From sequence record OM362897.1: a stretch of 64,000 nucleotides of DNA; one strand, 5' to 3'. Source of the DNA: Escherichia phage SKA64. Both the position numbers and the translations under genes were made by a program. Within the stretch, counting starts at the first letter, position 1; the number at the start of each line of letters is the position of its first letter. Below, piece by piece: positions 24,976 to 42,751 of this stretch. The notes under the pieces are model-generated. The model searched no databases, was not told the origin of the DNA, and worked only from the letters and a program-made list of their open reading frames with translations.

Positions 24976-25167
24976 ATGAGTTACGATTTAGATTATTTTG
25001 GTATGCCTTACCTACCAGATGAATTTGAAGGTGAAGAAGAACGTGAATGGGACGATGGGGATATCCGTTGTTGGTCTTGTGGTAAAGATATGTCTTATGA
25101 ACAACATATGCACAATGATGGTTTCTGTATACATTGTTATAATGAAATTGATCTGGAGGAAGATTAA
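24976..25167 (+). CDS. small Cys-rich protein (possible zinc ribbon)
   Basis: AGGAG RBS; CWSCGKD...CIHCYNE; internal start chosen over track start 24871. Confidence 0.45.
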   Translation: MSYDLDYFGMPYLPDEFEGEEEREWDDGDIRCWSCGKDMSYEQHMHNDGFCIHCYNEIDLEED

Positions 25168-25325
25168 TGGGAAATGGTATCATGATTTGCTATAAAATTG
25201 TGCGTATTGTCGGAGACGAAGTTACCACTCGGTATTTTATGATAGAGTCTCAAGCCGATGAGGTTTACAATGACTGGCTTGAAAAGGTGGATACGATTTT
25301 GTATCTAAAGAAACTTTCCGTTTAG
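25167..25325 (+). CDS. hypothetical small protein (52 aa, below track cutoff)
   Basis: ATG overlapping upstream TAA, GGAGG RBS; manual translation. Confidence 0.3.
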   Translation: MGNGIMICYKIVRIVGDEVTTRYFMIESQADEVYNDWLEKVDTILYLKKLSV

Positions 25326-30240: not shown

Positions 30241-30267
30241 ATAAAAAGAAAGCCCCTTTCGGGGCTT
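30241..30267 (-). terminator. rho-independent terminator after collagen-like fibre gene
   Basis: Minus-strand hairpin AAGCCCC-GAAA-GGGGCTT followed by TCTTTTTAT. Confidence 0.5.
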
Positions 30268-30270
30268 CTG

Positions 30271-31920
30271 TTATCGTGTTACAACAACCATGTCCACGAT
30301 ATCACCCACACCAGGATACGTTAATTGCAAAATTGTTACTGCGTTAGCAGTAGTTGCTATTTCTGTATCATTTAGTGCTCCATAAGACGCATCTAGTGTA
30401 ACCGTGTGTCCCGTTGTATCTTGAATCAAATAAATCATTGCTGAAAACGCTTTAGGTTTTGTAGAGCCAGTGACACCAGGCCATGCTCCAACTGTCAGAG
30501 CGTCAGTTACTGTAACAACATACATATTGGAAGTTCCAGAAGGAGTCCAAGATGCTCCAGAGTTGGCAGTAGTTGTTTCAAGTTCCATGAAACCTGCTGT
30601 AACTCTAGTTGGTGTTATAGCTTCCGTAGGATCTGATCCTGATATTTCGATCCAGTTTCCATCAGAACGACCATACGTCAAGCCGTCTTGAGGGGCTTCT
30701 GGTATACTAGGAAGAGTTCCTATAAGTGTCCACGTAGAAGAATCTGTTTTCTTAAACACTGCTCCAGTGGTAGTATTGAAGGCGTAATCATTGATAACAC
30801 CGTCTCCTGCGACTGGATTAGTTGTTGCTACAAACCACTGTGCGCCGTCCTTACCGTTGGTCCCATCAGTACCGTTGGTTCCGTTTGTTCCAGGATCACC
30901 CTTATCTCCTTTATCCCCTTTTTCACCTTTGTCGCCTTTAATACTTCCCATGTCAACAAAAGATGCGGAATTGGTGTCTTGATCGTAGGTATAGATGTAA
31001 AGATTACTAGTGTCTTCAGTTAAGTAAGCATCACCATAGTTATTGTAAACAGGGAGAGCTTCACTGTTCGGAACATGACCTTTAGCTGTAATTGATGTTC
31101 CTCCGAGACTGCCAACATTCATCCATTCCGTAGCATCTTGGACCCAAACATACAAATCATTATTAATTTTATATGCATCACCTACTTCTCCCGTCGGAGG
31201 AAGTTCAGCTTCGCTGTTCAGAACCCCGATAATCTCTAAGCCTGATCCTGTTGCGCCTACTGGTCCTTGTGGACCTAATTCGCCTTGTGGACCTCGCTCT
31301 CCTTGATCACCCTTGTCTCCTTTTGGACCTTTAAGCGAGGCAATAAAATCTACTTCTGTCCCTTCATTACCAGCATCCAGCCAACTTTGATATGCAGATT
31401 TCCCTTCATCTCCATCTGTTCCATCTAGACCGTCTTTACCTGCCTCACCTTGTGGACCTTGAGGACCAACAATATTACCCATGTTGACCCAAGCTGTCCC
31501 ATTAGAGACATAAAGATTACCACTGATAGAATAAGCTTGGCTTACGTTTTCAGAGTTAGGTTGTGGTAAGTTACTTGTAGAAGGCAAATCTCCACGATAA
31601 TCAAAACCGTTGGCGTTAACACCAGGTGCTCCCTGTGGCCCTGTAGGACCAACATCGCCTTTATCACCTTTTATAGAGGTAAGAAAATCATAAACAGATC
31701 CTGTATTACCATCTGCCAACCATACCTCGTAAGCTGATTTACCTTCTGGTCCAAGAGAAGAAATAAGTTTCCAAACAGAACCATCCCAAGCGTAGATTAC
31801 ATCGCCTACGATATAACCATCCCCTGCAACGTTACCTGTAGATGGTAGTTCACTAGTGCTTGCTAATGATCCTTTAATATTGAGTTGAGCACCAGTATCC
31901 CTTTCAAAGAGGCAAGCCAT
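30271..31920 (-). CDS. tail fibre protein with collagen-like Gly-X-Y repeats and phage-fibre repeats
   Basis: Runs such as GPQGPQGEAGKDGLDGTDGDEG, GDKGEKGDKGDKGDPGTNGTNG; repeated GKSAY..WL..GN.G...F..SLKG modules. Confidence 0.65.
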   Translation of the reverse strand: MACLFERDTGAQLNIKGSLASTSELPSTGNVAGDGYIVGDVIYAWDGSVWKLISSLGPEGKSAYEVWLADGNTGSVYDFLTSIKGDKGDVGPTGPQGAPGVNANGFDYRGDLPSTSNLPQPNSENVSQAYSISGNLYVSNGTAWVNMGNIVGPQGPQGEAGKDGLDGTDGDEGKSAYQSWLDAGNEGTEVDFIASLKGPKGDKGDQGERGPQGELGPQGPVGATGSGLEIIGVLNSEAELPPTGEVGDAYKINNDLYVWVQDATEWMNVGSLGGTSITAKGHVPNSEALPVYNNYGDAYLTEDTSNLYIYTYDQDTNSASFVDMGSIKGDKGEKGDKGDKGDPGTNGTNGTDGTNGKDGAQWFVATTNPVAGDGVINDYAFNTTTGAVFKKTDSSTWTLIGTLPSIPEAPQDGLTYGRSDGNWIEISGSDPTEAITPTRVTAGFMELETTTANSGASWTPSGTSNMYVVTVTDALTVGAWPGVTGSTKPKAFSAMIYLIQDTTGHTVTLDASYGALNDTEIATTANAVTILQLTYPGVGDIVDMVVVTR

Positions 31921-32053
31921 TGTGCTTCTGTTCCAACAAAACCATTATCAAGTGCGATCTGATAAGCCGATTTACCCCTTTCAAAGAGGCAAGCCATTGT
32001 GCTTCTGTTCCAACAAAACCATTATCAAGTGCGATCTGATAAGCCGATTTACC
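31899..32053. repeat. exact 77-bp direct tandem duplication (two copies)
   Basis: Copy 1 about 31899-31975 and copy 2 about 31976-32052 are identical by eye; spans the 3-prime end of ORF 31904..32371 and the ATG of ORF 30271..31920. Confidence 0.85.
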
Positions 32054-32371
32054 AGCTTCAGGTATTGTTTCCGACAGATCATCAATTTGTTGCTGCATTG
32101 CCGTAAACTTGGCATTGATAATTGCTATGTCATCAGCGGTCCCAACACTTTGCCATGCAAGGGAAGAAATACCACCTGTGGTGGCTGGCGTAGAGTTTGC
32201 TGGAACTACTTTAGGAAAAGTTCCTTTCCATTGGTAATAATTCCCTTCTGCTGCTAACAGCAAAACTTCACGGGAATTACGTAATGTAAAACCTGCCTCA
32301 AAGCTGCGACGTTTTCGATAAGTAGCTTCTACCAGATCGGCTATCGCACTATTAGGTCTTGTTAAATTCAT
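31904..32371 (-). CDS. tail fibre N-terminal segment (155 aa), C-terminus altered by tandem duplication
   Basis: Ends with a GKSAYQIALDNGFVGTEAQWLASLKG fibre module, then 23 out-of-frame residues derived from the second repeat copy. Confidence 0.45.
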   Translation of the reverse strand: MNLTRPNSAIADLVEATYRKRRSFEAGFTLRNSREVLLLAAEGNYYQWKGTFPKVVPANSTPATTGGISSLAWQSVGTADDIAIINAKFTAMQQQIDDLSETIPEAGKSAYQIALDNGFVGTEAQWLASLKGVNRLIRSHLIMVLLEQKHNGLPL

Positions 32372-32432
32372 TTATCTCTCCTATCATTAGACCATTCTAT
32401 TGGAAGAAGAGGGGAGATTCCCCTCTATTCCA

Positions 32433-35400
32433 TTAGGTTGTTGGCACATCTACTACTGGCGTTGGGCGAATAACCGCAGTATTACCTACAGAAACATTAC
32501 TGGAATCATTAGGTATGGTTTTAATTCTAACTCCAGCACTTGTAGGCGTTACAATTGGATCTGCAATGTCTATTTTAACTGGGTTAGTCCACGTATCATT
32601 ATCTTGATAAGGTGCACGAGTAATAACTGTGTCCAAATCTGCTCCACCTACGCCAGCACCAGGAATACGAATACGTGTCCCTGCTGACAGAGGGTAATGA
32701 TACAACCAAGAAGCATTTGTTGCTGTCCCGTTAGGAGTCAAGTTCTGTGTCAGGAAGGTATCTCCTGCCTGTGTAGCTCGAATACCGAAAGCTGGGATAT
32801 CTGGAATATATGCCCCACTTGTTGTTACAAGGAAGAACGTATTATCCGCCTTGACTATCATATCACCTTTGTCAAACTCTTTCCCTGTTGGGAAATGCAT
32901 TCCATCAATGTTTCGACTAGGATTAGGCTCTAAGTAATAAACTTTGCCCGTTGTCCCTACAATAGCTCCAATACCACCTGCGATATTGGTATACATATTA
33001 GCTTCAACATTACAGTTGACACGATGAATATCCGAGTAACGGCAACGGCTCCACTGTGGACGACCAGTAACCATCGTCTTGCCATCTGGGTAACAGTTTA
33101 CGTTAACCATTTCAAGAACAGATTTTTCTCTACGGAAGAATCCATCATAAAATGTCCCTGGACCAGATTCAGGTTGACCAACACAATCGAAGATATTACA
33201 GGTGATGTTAGACATTGAAAGCCAAGAAGCTATACCGAACAACTGCAATGCAGCGCAACGAATATTTTCAAAGCTAACTCTGTTTTCATAACCTGGCCCA
33301 GCGGAAACTCCCGCAAAAACACGCCCAGTTTTGGTGTGAATGTTACGAACAGAATAGTTAAAGCATGGGTTTGAAGGTCTACCCTGTGCCGGAACTACCG
33401 GATTACCCTCTTCGTCCAGAACTGCGTTAGTTCCCCACTCCAAATAAATCATACGGATATTACTTGCAAGTGTGCTACCGTCTGTTTTAGGCTCTCCGTA
33501 AACACCGTCAATCGTAAAATCTTTACTTCCATACATTACAACTGCGCCAGTTGCCAAACCTGTCCCAACAGATACGGTCTGGTCTGGATCGCCATGAATG
33601 TTTTCGATAGAGATATTACGACCAACTTCTACGTGGACAATCTGACGACAACGTTTTGCAAAAACGTTACGAATTGTAATATTCTTACAATATTGATCAT
33701 CAGGGATTCCGTAACCATATGGTCCTTTACCAGCTACACCGATACCGATACCCCAGTTGGACAGAGGAATAGGAGCGTTAGTCCCATCGATATTAGACAG
33801 GTAAATATTCTCAATCACACAACCATCGTCATAATGTTTATTGATGACGTTCAGTTCTATTGCATCACCTTGCATGTCCATGAAGGTAAGGTTACGGAAG
33901 ACACCACGTGTTACTGGTTCCCCTGTTCCTTGTTGAAGGATGCCATACAACCCGTTTTTAAAAGTACAGTTATCAATTTCAAAAGTACCTGATATTGGGT
34001 TGCCTTGGAATACCAAGCTACCAACTTGACCTGCGCGAGGAGCACCGTCCCACAAACAATCGAACATGCGCACAGCACCACCCCAATACATAACACGAGA
34101 GTTACGGAAAGTTGTGCCTTCTACTGTAGCATTTTGCACACGATAGTCGCGTTGACCACGGAACACACCCCCACGCAAAGTGATACCTTGAATATCAAAA
34201 GAGCTTGTCGTGAAAGTCATATCGCAACCGTAAGCATCGAGAATCTTGCTTTTCGAAGCTTTTGCTGCTAACAGTGCCGCCTGGAAAGCTGCTTCTGGTG
34301 TGGTATAGGTAGTTGTATTGTTAGCAAATTCTGACAAGTAGACAACATCGAATAAATCGTTGTATGTTCCACCACGAGGGGTTAACAGTCCTTCCGTATT
34401 AGTTAGAACCCATGCGTTTGGACCTAATCCACCGCTTGTCTCTAATGTGTCAGAGGCCAAAATACTTTTTGGTAAACTTCCAGCCCAACGATAACGACCA
34501 GCACCACGTCCAATCGTCTGATTTTTAGCTGTCAGGGTTACGTTATTACCAAAGCTTGTAGGCAAATGGACAAATTGTCCACGTTCAACAGCCAGTGCGG
34601 AAAGATCTACAGATCCCCCAGAATAAGTCATTACTCCAGAAACAGACAAAGATGTTAAAGTTCCTGTGATGTTAGGAGGTAATGTGTAGGAAGACTGTGC
34701 TACCGGATCATACAGAGCTTTAATCCCTGTTAACGATTGCCCTGCTGTTGCGTAAGCCACCTCATCATCTAACAAACCATATTTACGAGCAATAGTTTGC
34801 AGAGGGACTTTATCCATGCTTTCTGTTAGTTCTTCCGTTTTTGTTTCTAAACTAACAAGACGGTTCTCTAGATTAGGATCTGTATCTGCTGAAGCTACGA
34901 TTTTACCAATATAAGCGAAAAGCTTGTTTGGCAGTCCTGTTGCAGGATCGTGTCCCAAAGGTTCAGATAAGATGATCTTACTATCTTCTATACGGAAAGC
35001 TTCCCCCAGAACCTGAATAACACCATTGATCGTAACAATAGCACTATCAAAGATGTAAGGAGGACTGATTACTGTTTCATAACCAGTTGCACCAGAATAT
35101 ACCCAAGGTGTGACTTCTGTTGCCAATTGTTCTGTCTTCAATCCCCACAATACCCAGTTGTTATCTCCTACTGGAGTACCTTGCATAGGGATTGGGTTTA
35201 CCAATGTAGCATTAGGAGCATAATAATAACCGCTCAATACCCCATTCTGAAAATAACGAAGTTGGTTAAAAACTGTTTCGTTTGTGCCTTGCGCCCAATC
35301 CAATGGGCTTTTAAAGAAAAAGTTGTCAACAAGGGCTTTTCTCAGGGTTGGTATCAACCCTGATTCTGTTTCAATACTCTCTGTAGCACTTCCATTAATA

Positions 35401-35486
35401 ACATCATGGAGTTGGTTAGATGAGAAAATAACCAGGTCTACGCCCTGTTCGAGAGACGTTGCTGGATATGTTGGGAATGTTGCCAT
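32433..35486 (-). CDS. tailspike protein (1017 aa), probable beta-helix enzymatic spike
   Basis: Size, Asn/Gly/Thr/Val-rich repetitive composition, position among receptor-binding genes; no catalytic motif assigned. Confidence 0.45.
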   Translation of the reverse strand: MATFPTYPATSLEQGVDLVIFSSNQLHDVINGSATESIETESGLIPTLRKALVDNFFFKSPLDWAQGTNETVFNQLRYFQNGVLSGYYYAPNATLVNPIPMQGTPVGDNNWVLWGLKTEQLATEVTPWVYSGATGYETVISPPYIFDSAIVTINGVIQVLGEAFRIEDSKIILSEPLGHDPATGLPNKLFAYIGKIVASADTDPNLENRLVSLETKTEELTESMDKVPLQTIARKYGLLDDEVAYATAGQSLTGIKALYDPVAQSSYTLPPNITGTLTSLSVSGVMTYSGGSVDLSALAVERGQFVHLPTSFGNNVTLTAKNQTIGRGAGRYRWAGSLPKSILASDTLETSGGLGPNAWVLTNTEGLLTPRGGTYNDLFDVVYLSEFANNTTTYTTPEAAFQAALLAAKASKSKILDAYGCDMTFTTSSFDIQGITLRGGVFRGQRDYRVQNATVEGTTFRNSRVMYWGGAVRMFDCLWDGAPRAGQVGSLVFQGNPISGTFEIDNCTFKNGLYGILQQGTGEPVTRGVFRNLTFMDMQGDAIELNVINKHYDDGCVIENIYLSNIDGTNAPIPLSNWGIGIGVAGKGPYGYGIPDDQYCKNITIRNVFAKRCRQIVHVEVGRNISIENIHGDPDQTVSVGTGLATGAVVMYGSKDFTIDGVYGEPKTDGSTLASNIRMIYLEWGTNAVLDEEGNPVVPAQGRPSNPCFNYSVRNIHTKTGRVFAGVSAGPGYENRVSFENIRCAALQLFGIASWLSMSNITCNIFDCVGQPESGPGTFYDGFFRREKSVLEMVNVNCYPDGKTMVTGRPQWSRCRYSDIHRVNCNVEANMYTNIAGGIGAIVGTTGKVYYLEPNPSRNIDGMHFPTGKEFDKGDMIVKADNTFFLVTTSGAYIPDIPAFGIRATQAGDTFLTQNLTPNGTATNASWLYHYPLSAGTRIRIPGAGVGGADLDTVITRAPYQDNDTWTNPVKIDIADPIVTPTSAGVRIKTIPNDSSNVSVGNTAVIRPTPVVDVPTT

Positions 35487-39571: not shown

Positions 39572-39813
39572 TAGTCATCCTCTTTGGTAGATTGTGATCT
39601 GCCCCAGCGTAAATCAATAAGATTTTTCATGAGGCGAGAAGGAGTTATCATGAAAACAAAAGCCCAACCCATCCATTCAGGAATTTCTTTTTCTATTCCT
39701 AAAAAGATAAACATGCCTGTCATAACCGACATGCCTACAGCGTTCCAGACTTTCGTAGAACTGACTTTATTATCAGGATATGTACAGAACATACCTATTA
39801 AAAATTTTCTCAT
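39571..39813 (-). CDS. small membrane protein (80 aa)
   Basis: Two hydrophobic segments and charged C-terminus. Confidence 0.4.
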   Translation of the reverse strand: MRKFLIGMFCTYPDNKVSSTKVWNAVGMSVMTGMFIFLGIEKEIPEWMGWAFVFMITPSRLMKNLIDLRWGRSQSTKEDD

Positions 39814-40154
39814 AGTGCGTTCTCATTACTTTTTAAATCACGATATACAGCTAATTCCCCAAGGTCTACAGAACCCGCTGAATGCACAAGTACAGCAGCA
39901 CTAAGACTAATGGCAGTAGTACCTGGGGCAATATCAGCAGGTAGGGAATACGCCCTTTGCGTCTCCTTATCATAGATAACCTTATACCCACCCAAATCCA
40001 CACCAATCTGGACAATGGTGTACGCGATAGCTGCAACGTAGAACCATTCGTTCAGTGTAAATCCGAAGAAGAACCGACTGGCACCATCAGCCGCAGCGGT
40101 CCCGACGATAGGAGAGGCTTTAAGGATCTCATTCTTGAAGTCTAACTCAATCAT
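39810..40154 (-). CDS. hypothetical membrane protein (114 aa)
   Basis: Hydrophobic central region. Confidence 0.4.
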   Translation of the reverse strand: MIELDFKNEILKASPIVGTAAADGASRFFFGFTLNEWFYVAAIAYTIVQIGVDLGGYKVIYDKETQRAYSLPADIAPGTTAISLSAAVLVHSAGSVDLGELAVYRDLKSNENAL

Positions 40155-40201: not shown

Positions 40202-42751
40202 CTACGTTCGTGAGAACCCAAAGTTGGCTTCCATTTCCACCAGATAAGTACCAGCAGTACGCTTGAACACACCGATTTTACCTGAAGTCACCGCAGTGGT
40301 GTATAAAGGTGTCGCAATGACTCTGCCATCATCTGTTACAATTGTAAATGAGTAGCGACCGCTAGCGTCTGTGTAGACCCACACAGTAAACCCGACACCA
40401 ACGAAGTTAGTGGTCGTAATATCACCGAGTAAAGTCCAGTCAGTTGGTTCAGCGCCCATCCATGTACCAATGGCCATTCTGCCATCACTTGCTACACCAA
40501 CAAGAACAGCGGTCCCAGACAGCGAGTCCCAGTTCAGTGCAACGTAGGTGTTTAGGCCAAGACCAGACTTGACGTATACTCTGCCTACCAGTGTTTGTTG
40601 GTTAATATAAGCATCAGACGTCATTGCCCCAGCAGAGCCAGAGAATACGTTAGACAGCACATGGTCATCAAACTGGTTCCCGTCAGAGATAAAGCTAGTT
40701 GGAGCACTAGACTGGGAGATTGCTAAACGTGTCATCGGAATGTTGATACCATCGGTTCGCACACTGCCAAACTTGAGAGCGGGATACCATACATTTGGTA
40801 ACTGACCGCCATTAATTATGGTTATAAGATTTAACCCCTTACGCAGGCGTCCAGCATAAGTTGTAAGGGTCTTAGATCCTCCAAGATATGATGAGGCCAG
40901 CTTACCTACAGCAAATTTAGCGTATGAGTTTATTTTAGTATTCCTTTCAGAATATGATGGGTCAGATTCATTCAGCTCGATGCCAGCAGGTGCAATAACC
41001 CTTAAGTGGTTGTAATCCCCAACCTTACCTGCACCACTCCAAGGCTCCAGCACTGTCAGTGTCATATCCTCCTCCTCACACCATACAAACGTGTTGAATG
41101 TAATATTCTCACCATTTGTTGGTGCCAGAGGTATATATCCAAAGGTATTCAGCTTCGGAGTACCACTAGCTTTATGGTAATGAGGACGGAGGTGATTCTG
41201 TGATGGATAAGTCACGGCATCCCAATAGTTCTCTACCACTGACGTGTTCATCATATCACCCGGACGTACACGGCGAACGTACTTCTCACCAATGGTCTGC
41301 ATGAACATGGAGCCACCCATAACCCTCTGTCCCAACTCTTGTGGGTGAGTAGTATCGTACTGAGGTTCCTTCTTCACGTAGTAATAATCCATGCCTTGCA
41401 TGTTGATGTTAGACATCTCGGTAAGGTCTGGACCTAAGTTGAAGTAGTCGATACCCAATGTCTCGCACATCTGACGCTTGGTAGCTCCCTCGAAACCAAT
41501 ACGCGACCAGTCGTTGTCGTTAACAGTCACGATACCAACCGTGCATCCATAACCCCATGCCTTGCGTACAAACATGTCAATCTGATCTCGGTATGTCGCC
41601 ATGTCCTGACTTGAGTCATTCCACCCCATCGCTAAGAGACAGACGCGAGGTGCTTTGGCCCCATATCGAATGTTACCGAAGAACCCTCGGTCAAAGTTAC
41701 GGTATCCCCACCCATCGGATAACTTAGCTCCTGATAGAGACGCGTTATAAACTTGGAAGATAGCCTCACTAGACCAGCGTGACTGGACCGTGTTCATAAG
41801 CCACTGCCAGTGAGCACACCAAGAGTGTGAACCTCCAGCCAGACTGTGGTTGTAGTCTATCGGAGCAGCCAAGTCTCGATTGGAATCCAGAGGAGGGGAA
41901 CTCCAGTTCTGTTTACCCCAAGCACCGTCAGTGATGGAGTCACCAACAATGCCAATAGTACCATCTTCATACCTTTGAGAACGAACAGCTTCTAATAGAA
42001 CGGATTTAACAGAACGTCCATTACCATTGGTTGCCTTCTCTACGTCAAACAGCATGTCACCACCGTAGAACTGGTTCTTGACGATAAGTTTACCTTCGCC
42101 AACGAACTTACGGACATCATCATCAGGCAGCAGGTTTACACGGATAGTTACATCACGAGGGATGTAAATCTTACCGGCAAACGCATAGGCTGCAGCACGG
42201 TTATCAACCGAAGTGTTAAAGTTGATGTTCGGTACATAATAGACGGACTCAGCTCCTTCGAACTTGAAGCGTCCCCTCAGCATTTCTGTACGCAACGTTG
42301 CATCACCAACATTAACCCACGCGCCTAATCCAATTCCACCAGTGCTATCTGGAGTTGAACCAGCAGCTACTGTTTTGGGAAATTCGCCCCCCCACGTATA
42401 GCATTGACCGCCAGCAATGTGCCAAACAGCATCTGTTGCCTTAGTGACTGTAGCCCCTTCTTCAAAACTACCATCAACAAGAGTTAACCCAGCCTCGGCA
42501 AGACTACGACGCCACTGTTCACGATCATTAAGAAGATTGTTATTCAACTCTTCCTGAACAGTATTACCATTTGAGGATTGTATTAAATCTGCTCCATCTG
42601 TATCTTTCAACTGGGTGGCTAAAACCACCCCAGTGTCAGTAAGAAAGTTGGAAACTGTGCTTTTAACAGTTTTATCAGGTTGATCTAAAACCAGGTAATC
42701 TGAACCATTAACTTTTGATGTTTCGGGTAAATTAGTAATTGTAGTTGACAT
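40202..42751 (-). CDS. tailspike protein with SGNH/GDSL esterase domain
   Basis: GIVGDSITDGAWG (GDS block I) and downstream DTTHPQ (DxxH block V); N-terminal anchor region. Confidence 0.6.
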   Translation of the reverse strand: MSTTITNLPETSKVNGSDYLVLDQPDKTVKSTVSNFLTDTGVVLATQLKDTDGADLIQSSNGNTVQEELNNNLLNDREQWRRSLAEAGLTLVDGSFEEGATVTKATDAVWHIAGGQCYTWGGEFPKTVAAGSTPDSTGGIGLGAWVNVGDATLRTEMLRGRFKFEGAESVYYVPNINFNTSVDNRAAAYAFAGKIYIPRDVTIRVNLLPDDDVRKFVGEGKLIVKNQFYGGDMLFDVEKATNGNGRSVKSVLLEAVRSQRYEDGTIGIVGDSITDGAWGKQNWSSPPLDSNRDLAAPIDYNHSLAGGSHSWCAHWQWLMNTVQSRWSSEAIFQVYNASLSGAKLSDGWGYRNFDRGFFGNIRYGAKAPRVCLLAMGWNDSSQDMATYRDQIDMFVRKAWGYGCTVGIVTVNDNDWSRIGFEGATKRQMCETLGIDYFNLGPDLTEMSNINMQGMDYYYVKKEPQYDTTHPQELGQRVMGGSMFMQTIGEKYVRRVRPGDMMNTSVVENYWDAVTYPSQNHLRPHYHKASGTPKLNTFGYIPLAPTNGENITFNTFVWCEEEDMTLTVLEPWSGAGKVGDYNHLRVIAPAGIELNESDPSYSERNTKINSYAKFAVGKLASSYLGGSKTLTTYAGRLRKGLNLITIINGGQLPNVWYPALKFGSVRTDGINIPMTRLAISQSSAPTSFISDGNQFDDHVLSNVFSGSAGAMTSDAYINQQTLVGRVYVKSGLGLNTYVALNWDSLSGTAVLVGVASDGRMAIGTWMGAEPTDWTLLGDITTTNFVGVGFTVWVYTDASGRYSFTIVTDDGRVIATPLYTTAVTSGKIGVFKRTAGTYLVEMEANFGFSRT

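Follow-up and report, generated by a model that had tools for sequence, protein, structure and literature searches.

The two ends of a contig assembled by SPAdes from a de Bruijn graph share exactly k bases when the genome is circular or circularly permuted, and the default list of k values used by SPAdes for reads of ~150 nt tops out at 77. Short modules within phage fibres can also become duplicated in tandem. The His-box duplications in gp37 of phage T4 are in frame, and are reported to give a functional, longer fibre with an expanded host range. In the assembly of phage genomes an overlap of 77 bp between contig ends has been described (PMC9409062), as has an equivalent overlap of 127 bp (PMC5923482), and such artificial overlaps of length k need to be trimmed before the contig is circularised (PMC9409062; PMC5923482).

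Here we have analysed a stretch of 64 kb from the GenBank record of Escherichia phage SKA64, to which we refer as the window. The protein of a 52-aa ORF within it is UKM17333.1 of that phage. The phage is a Phapecoctavirus, an E. coli myovirus resembling phAPEC8; of the 70 phage records that match, 63 cover 80% or more of the region, mostly with 95-99.6% identity. In phages of this group several fibres and spikes are expressed together (PMC8594841; PMC12695924), including a 'TfpM2' class of 681 aa (PMC12695924), and SKA64 itself has gained a foreign G7C-like tailspike (PMC10282059). Within the window lies an exact tandem duplication of 77 nt, and we conclude that this is very probably an artefact of the assembly and curation of the SKA64 GenBank record.

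Results

The repeat

Two identical copies of 77 nt lie head to tail between positions 31899 and 32053. Tandem Repeats Finder (TRF) returns a period of 77 with 2.0 copies, 100% matches and 0 indels. Our own scan finds an exact matched run of 78 nt at period 77, the base at 32053 lengthening the match by one chance G. Both agree with the exact 77-bp duplication reported in a first-pass annotation of this DNA. The copies are named here in the direction of the gene.

31976..32052, minus strand: copy A, the first in the direction of the gene, GTAAATCGG...TTGAAAGGG, encoding native fibre residues ~107-132 (GKSAYQIALDNGFVGTEAQWLASLKG) in frame
31899..31975, minus strand: copy B, the second in the direction of the gene, identical to copy A and missing from all relatives and collections searched

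The string across the junction of copies A and B is TTTGAAAGGGGTAAATCGGC. The single-copy form carrying a run of four G nucleotides (G4) reads GAAGCTGGTAAATCGG...TTGAAAGGGGATACTGG, and in the single-copy form with three (G3) GGGATACTGG replaces TTGAAAGGGGATACTGG. An exact match of 77 nt cannot have arisen by chance. The repeat is the sole tandem duplication in the 64-kb window (TRF and our own scan, periods 8-1000), and a scan for 30-mers occurring twice shows that it is also the sole exact direct repeat there of at least 30 nt. Additional tandem repeats of k-like length would be a sign of manual joins between several contigs, and none was found within the window.

A fibre gene in two ORFs

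The repeat is flanked and overlapped by the following features.

31904..32371, minus strand: 155-aa ORF, comprising native residues 1-132 (31976-32371) and then 23 junk residues and a stop codon (31904-31975)
30271..31920, minus strand: 549-aa ORF (UKM17339.1, 'ORF 244'), comprising seven junk residues (MACLFER) and then native fibre residues 133-674
30249..30268, minus strand: terminator-like hairpin, directly 3' of the fibre stop codon; relatives have a terminator annotated at the same place
32433..35486, minus strand: upstream neighbour, a 1017-aa WcaM-like (colanic-acid-degrading) tailspike ('ORF 245', UKM17340.1)

The reading of the frames in the first-pass annotation stands. Copy A encodes the fibre module GKSAYQIALDNGFVGTEAQWLASLKG in frame, as had been stated. 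Copy B is out of frame for the upstream ORF, which ends after the 23 unrelated residues, and the ATG of the collagen-like ORF, at 31920, does lie inside this second copy. Copy B thus gives the 549-aa ORF both its start codon and its junk residues. What was misleading was the description of the site as the junction of two tail-fibre ORFs, since the junction falls inside what is a single gene with a 674-aa ORF in relatives.

The 155-aa ORF contains a Tail_spike_N virion-anchor domain at residues 12-77 (PF18668, E=5e-20), and is preceded by a strong Shine-Dalgarno sequence, AGGAG, at 32378-32382 that belongs to the true start of the fibre. It is left unannotated in the GenBank record. The 549-aa ORF carries collagen-like repeats (Collagen, E=1e-12) and a C-terminal domain, and no Shine-Dalgarno sequence was found before its ATG. 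The two tile phrog_15437 between them, the 155-aa ORF aligning with positions 1-132 and the 549-aa ORF with 131-655. With the anchor, the collagen repeats and this tiling the locus has the make-up of a Tail_spike_N-anchored collagen-like fibre. When one copy of the repeat is removed and the missing G restored, the resulting protein has 0 amino acid differences from the fibre of phage 10C3_SA_NWU, and 0-4 differences from those of the relatives, with the same neighbouring genes; nothing else in the gene has decayed. The two ORFs are therefore parts of one and the same conserved gene for a 674-aa tail fibre, which has a collagen-like shaft behind a Tail_spike_N anchor, and the hairpin at 30249..30268 marks the end of a single fibre transcription unit. 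By its size and family the 674-aa fibre probably corresponds to the 'TfpM2' class.

The locus in related phages

At this locus phAPEC8, 10C3_SA_NWU, PNJ1809-36 and Schickermooser each have one CDS of 2025 nt encoding a 674-aa tail fibre, with the 1017-aa WcaM-like tailspike on one side and an 891-aa tail protein on the other. Copy A aligns 1:1 with the single copy present in these four phages, and is the authentic copy. We also retrieved independent contigs through the identical upstream 1017-aa tailspike (n = 10, six of which are Logan assemblies of raw sequencing runs), and found a single fibre gene in 10/10, encoding 674 aa (677 aa in one). All 17 of the fetched loci that cover the site, Logan raw-run assemblies included, have one copy followed by G4.

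The string that spans the junction of the two copies was found in 0 of 60 phage records, and gave 0 matches in IMG/VR, GTDB species genomes, JGI metagenomes and complete E. coli RefSeq genomes. Both the duplication and the loss of the G nucleotide are private to SKA64 among the genomes compared. Exact-protein look-ups for an independent SKA64 assembly in Logan and ENA gave no match for the 155-aa, 549-aa, 849-aa or 52-aa products. It had been proposed that comparison with related phages might reveal the same duplication with two conserved, separate genes. The relatives have neither, having one copy and one continuous 674-aa ORF, and two conserved genes are ruled out by the single gene in the four GenBank relatives and the ten independent contigs (677 aa in one of these).

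The G-run adjoining the repeat

Immediately downstream of copy B in the direction of the gene there is a further difference from the relatives.

31899..31901, minus strand: G3 homopolymer (CCC on the plus strand), right before ...ATACTGG; G4 in all relatives

In the alignment the relatives have a single copy and then ...TTGAAAGGGGATACT..., and SKA64 has two copies and then ...TTGAAAGGGATACT.... The net insertion relative to them is therefore 76 nt, not 77, being a duplication of 77 nt minus one G. An extra base at the G-run is present in 48/48 of the relatives aligned across it, with 82 nt spanned by an 81-nt query, and G4 is likewise found in 17/17 of the fetched loci. By itself the loss of one G shifts the frame of the fibre gene from codon 133, with the duplication or without it. 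Neither this loss nor the fact that the ORFs are halves of one gene was included in the first-pass annotation.

The alignment with the closest relative, ~50 kb at ~98.8% identity, contains just four sites of indels, among them the change from G4 to G3 that touches the boundary of the repeat. For a contig break placed at random this adjacency of indel and repeat would be roughly a 1-in-10^5 coincidence. Elsewhere the sequence is clean. There are 0 gaps over blocks of 21.4 kb and 12.5 kb, and the window has two private small indels, compared with 2-6 in four relatives. The other private homopolymer change is from A5 to A4 near 25285; it is private with respect to 64 GenBank relatives, and recurs in an independent Logan contig. 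This A5 to A4 change therefore appears to be a real allele, not noise. An error-prone assembly with noisy homopolymers is ruled out by the gap-free blocks, by there being just two private indels and by the presence of the second in the Logan contig. Because the A5 to A4 change recurs and the assembly is otherwise clean, a real allele, perhaps present together with G4, is a likelier reading of G3 than noise, and random Illumina noise is an unlikely source of it.

The repeat and the assembly of SKA64

SKA64 was sequenced by Illumina MiSeq with a mean read length of 151 nt (PMC10282059), and assembled using 'PlasmidSPADES (version 3.13.2)' with default settings, the graphs being inspected in Bandage (PMC10282059). 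The length of the repeat equals the default top k for 150-nt reads, the paper itself giving no k value (PMC10282059). An origin from SPAdes at k = 77 had been predicted on the basis of the sequence, ahead of the identification of its source. The last base of the window is the first nucleotide after the stop codon of TerL, and across the repeat the numbering is continuous both for the ORFs (244 to 245 of 275) and for the accessions (UKM17339 to UKM17340). From the position of the window end and the unbroken numbering it follows that the record was re-cut after assembly, so that the raw ends now lie internally. The same continuity rules out that the repeat results from the extracted window wrapping round the raw contig.

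We simulated the assembly by constructing both single-copy alleles, G3 and G4, and comparing the branching vertex with the repeat unit at several values of k. The branching vertex, i.e. the last 77-mer common to the two alleles, is identical to the repeat unit only when k = 77. If a loop contig is made to start and end on this vertex along the G3 allele, and its ends are joined untrimmed, every base of the window is recovered at this k. The same simulated join failed to reproduce the window at k = 21, 33, 55, 99 and 127.

Discussion

We suggest that the repeat arose in the following manner. Assembly by plasmidSPAdes at k = 77 would give a circular contig with identical first and last 77 nt. 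If the reads differed by G3 or G4 a branch would be created in the assembly graph, and after bubble removal the only vertex left on the loop would be the last 77-mer shared by both alleles, corresponding to the repeated unit. The authors re-linearised the contig to start at the terminase gene, and the ends of the raw contig would then have been pasted together inside the record with the surplus copy of the overlap left in. The join would be located within the fibre gene because the one-nucleotide difference in G-run length sits there, and the loss of the G would thus explain the exact place of the break. We infer that the ends were joined manually without trimming, that the reads contained a mixture of G3 and G4, and that copy B is the overlap, at k = 77, between the ends of the contig from plasmidSPAdes, left untrimmed. 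The true genome would then have one copy and a length of ~152,324 bp, compared with 152,401 bp in the record. This one model explains the length, the exactness and the register of the repeat, together with the indel that adjoins it. The repeat has four marks of such an artefact, namely adjacent copies that are 100% identical, a length equal to the final k, the re-orientation of the genome, and its absence from relatives and independent assemblies. It may be noted that an overlap artefact pure and simple predicts an additional 77 nt where the record has 76 relative to the relatives, and a G3 allele in the reads is the extra assumption that this entails.

Could the duplication and the loss of G both be real? 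The 77 nt might have been duplicated by slipped-strand synthesis between the flanking G-runs, with a separate slip of -1 in G4, inactivating one of several receptor-binding fibres in a manner tolerated because it is dispensable on the propagation host. There is G/GG microhomology at each unit boundary, the remaining sequence looks accurate, and the loss of one fibre is made plausible by the several fibres and spikes co-expressed in these phages (PMC8594841; PMC12695924), as well as by the foreign G7C-like tailspike that SKA64 has acquired. Yet two independent rare events would be required within 80 nt, and the match in length to the k of the assembler would be a coincidence of roughly 1 in hundreds. 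The unit boundaries, GG upstream and GGG(G) downstream, are compatible with slippage but amount to just 1-3 nt. Slippage should moreover leave the downstream flank unchanged, so that a single event would leave G4 and not the observed G3 with a net gain of 76 nt. The register of the repeat at the k = 77 branch vertex and the rotation of the genome after assembly would remain as unexplained coincidences, and the duplication was found nowhere else in the relatives and collections searched. We consider that the two events are very unlikely both to be real. The proposal in the first-pass annotation of a recent duplication that remodelled the N-terminus of the fibre fails as well.

A functional role for the arrangement is scarcely credible. 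This might take the form of a split fibre, in which an anchor stub re-associates with a separately translated 549-aa shaft, or of a switch in expression based on repeat number or frameshifting. In its favor, owing to the loss of G the ATG of copy B shares its frame with the 542 native residues that follow. However, with one copy that ATG is in frame just as well, and nothing is gained from the duplication. The internal ATG is not preceded by a Shine-Dalgarno sequence, and a C-terminal product translated on its own would be without the Tail_spike_N anchor; on these two grounds translational restart to give a split fibre is ruled out. We modelled the reading frames for 0-5 copies in combination with G3, G4 and G5, and the full 674-aa protein was obtained only from one copy with G4. 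With G3, 1-5 copies all led to termination at 143-155 aa, none restoring the full ORF; the lone exception to termination with G3 was 0 copies, giving an in-frame deletion of 26 aa. The copy-number switch that had been raised as a second option is thereby excluded, since no copy number of one or more restores the frame with G3. A phase-variable switch in copy number is also ruled out by the presence of one copy and G4 in all relatives, and no split or repeat-variable gene was seen in any relative examined. Lastly, programmed ribosomal frameshifting gains no support, the relatives having one continuous ORF of 2025 nt and no overlapping ORFs, and the site lacking an X XXY YYZ heptamer, since the sequence TTG AAA GGG ATA has no canonical slippery heptamer. 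Among the three explanations initially offered for the duplication the assembly artefact is the only survivor, with the k = 77 vertex, the re-cutting at TerL and the single copy in relatives in its support.

The status of G3 is a narrower question. It is possible, though we think it the lesser chance, that only the duplication is artefactual and that G3 is an error of base calling or assembly, with the true SKA64 gene encoding an intact 674-aa fibre. This would be a sub-case of the artefact explanation and no true rival to it for the duplication. It is consistent with the occurrence of G4 throughout the 48 GenBank relatives and the 17 fetched loci, and with the 100% identity of the repaired protein to that of a relative. 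Against this, runs of 4 nt are seldom miscalled by Illumina, the private A5 to A4 change at ~25285 recurs in the independent Logan contig, and the best account of where the contig broke is that two alleles were truly present in the reads. If G3 is the majority allele SKA64 would make only a 143-aa anchor stub of the fibre, which is plausible in a phage with several other fibres and spikes and an acquired G7C-type tailspike. This would be an ordinary loss of function that involves no new mechanism. A genuine, reversible G3/G4 polymorphism within the lytic phage population, which turns one adsorption 'blade' ON or OFF with the OFF state being the anchor-only 143-aa stub, we consider quite improbable. 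If true it would be a bet-hedging of receptor-binding proteins that resembles phase variation, and the 77-nt duplication would still be an artefact.

On the preferred explanation of an untrimmed overlap, the SKA64 GenBank record probably contains 77 spurious bases. A conserved tail fibre would be mis-annotated as a protein of 549 aa with a false N-terminus (MACLFER...), its anchor domain going unannotated. A correction would take one 77-nt copy out of the record, probably OM362897.1 (otherwise OL741059), in which the repeat would lie at roughly 120,300-120,454 if the window forms its last 64 kb, and would re-annotate the fibre. SKA64 has been proposed for therapy or biocontrol, and its fibre proteins have contributed to phylogeny and to discussion of host range, so that a correct set of receptor-binding genes matters. 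A diagnostic rule can be drawn for phage and plasmid records in general. Where an exact tandem repeat of 55, 77, 99 or 127 nt is found inside such a record, an untrimmed k-mer overlap should be suspected first. The rule applies especially where the repeat adjoins a private indel, and the position of the repeat then marks heterogeneity in the reads. The value of the analysis lies in the correction of a record and in this transferable rule, and not in new biology; the repeat is very probably not a real feature, and the underlying gene is an ordinary one of the Tail_spike_N/collagen family of fibres.

Comparison with known systems

After repair the SKA64 gene encodes the same protein as phAPEC8 gp087, the mid-size tail fibre of Stephanstirmvirinae (phrog_15437; 674 aa, e.g. 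YP_007348547.1). It differs from that family as deposited, where it appears as two ORFs, one of 155 aa that is unannotated and one of 549 aa that is annotated. The His-box duplications of T4 gp37 resemble the SKA64 repeat as tandem duplications of a short fibre module, but the 77 nt of SKA64 (2 mod 3) break the frame and equal the k of the assembler. There is also some likeness to the homopolymer-tract contingency loci, at which phase variation occurs by strand slippage, in that a change of 1 nt in the G-run decides whether the fibre ORF is intact (G4) or truncated (G3). However, the tract of SKA64 has just 3-4 nt, which is far below a typical phase-variable length, and G4 is invariant in the 48 aligned relatives and 17 fetched loci. 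Compared with the usual terminal overlaps of SPAdes, that of SKA64 is internal, in a genome re-cut at TerL, and adjoins an allele difference of 1 nt. It is otherwise like the 'artificial overlaps' of 77 bp and 127 bp (PMC9409062; PMC5923482), all being exact, of a length equal to the final k, and found in Illumina assemblies of phage genomes.

Annotation of the divided fibre gene

The publication on SKA64 describes only part of the tail fibre. In Table S8 of PMC10282059, among ORFs 243-245, the sole fibre entry is the 549-aa C-terminal piece, named as a "putative phage tail fiber protein" and given 99% coverage against a 674-aa homologue. The 155-aa N-terminal ORF carries no annotation in the SKA64 GenBank record. 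With the 549-aa piece alone annotated and the 155-aa ORF left out, the truncation of the fibre therefore went unnoticed in the publication.

There is a terminator-like hairpin in the intergenic region that separates the fibre gene from the 1017-aa tailspike (window 32405-32425, - strand). The length of its stem differs from that of the closest relative, with GGGGAATCTCCCC in SKA64 and GGGGGAATCCCCCCCC in 10C3_SA_NWU. The difference is natural indel variation affecting the hairpin's G/C runs.

A second single-nucleotide homopolymer contraction

The shortening of a homopolymer by 1 nt beside the repeat is not the only one private to SKA64. A second is found at window 25280-25290, lying within an ORF at 25167-25325 (+), where SKA64 reads GAAAAGG vs GAAAAAGG in all of the GenBank relatives (64/64). 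The contraction affects a small gp081-like protein, whose C-terminus is altered and whose length becomes 52 aa vs 55 aa. A Logan contig also encodes this 52-aa form, differing by one substitution, and on this basis the contraction allele appears to be real rather than a sequencing error.

Placement of the window in the record

The last base of the window (64000) is the first nucleotide past the TerL stop codon, as located in relatives, and about 31 genes are left between ORF 245 (the 1017-aa tailspike) and the window end, from 275 ORFs overall. The window is therefore probably the final 64 kb of the SKA64 record, about 88,402-152,401. The record itself had been re-cut to begin at TerL on the complementary strand.

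The junction of the two 77-nt repeat copies (31975/31976) lies 24 nt away from the center of the 64,000-nt window (32000). No mechanistic reason for this position was found, because the ORF and accession numbering excludes a wrap-around window. The near-central position is treated as coincidence.

A probable G7C-type tailspike and its neighbor

Two adjacent features are relevant here:

40202-42751, - strand, 849-aa tailspike (ORF 253 of the paper), genome-specific
39810-40154, - strand, 114-aa ORF directly downstream of the foreign 849-aa tailspike

The smaller ORF is entered as a "tail spike protein" in the table of the SKA64 paper (PMC10282059). Its Pfam match is to a T7-family holin (Phage_holin_2_2, E=7.5e-20), and at the same position relatives have a protein of ~80-87 aa annotated as "membrane protein". 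One possibility is that this ORF and the 849-aa spike were transferred together from a T7-like phage; another is that it is merely mis-annotated.

The 849-aa tailspike gives no alignment to 10C3_SA_NWU, the closest Phapecoctavirus relative. Its Pfam domains are Tail_spike_N, G7C gp63 domain 3, G7C_GBD and G7C_C, with a weak match to GDSL esterase. From these domains it looks like a podovirus G7C-type spike, a putative O-antigen deacetylase, that has been grafted onto a conserved anchor. This make-up is consistent with the spike having been acquired horizontally from Kayfunavirus-like phages, a point also made in the SKA64 paper (PMC10282059).
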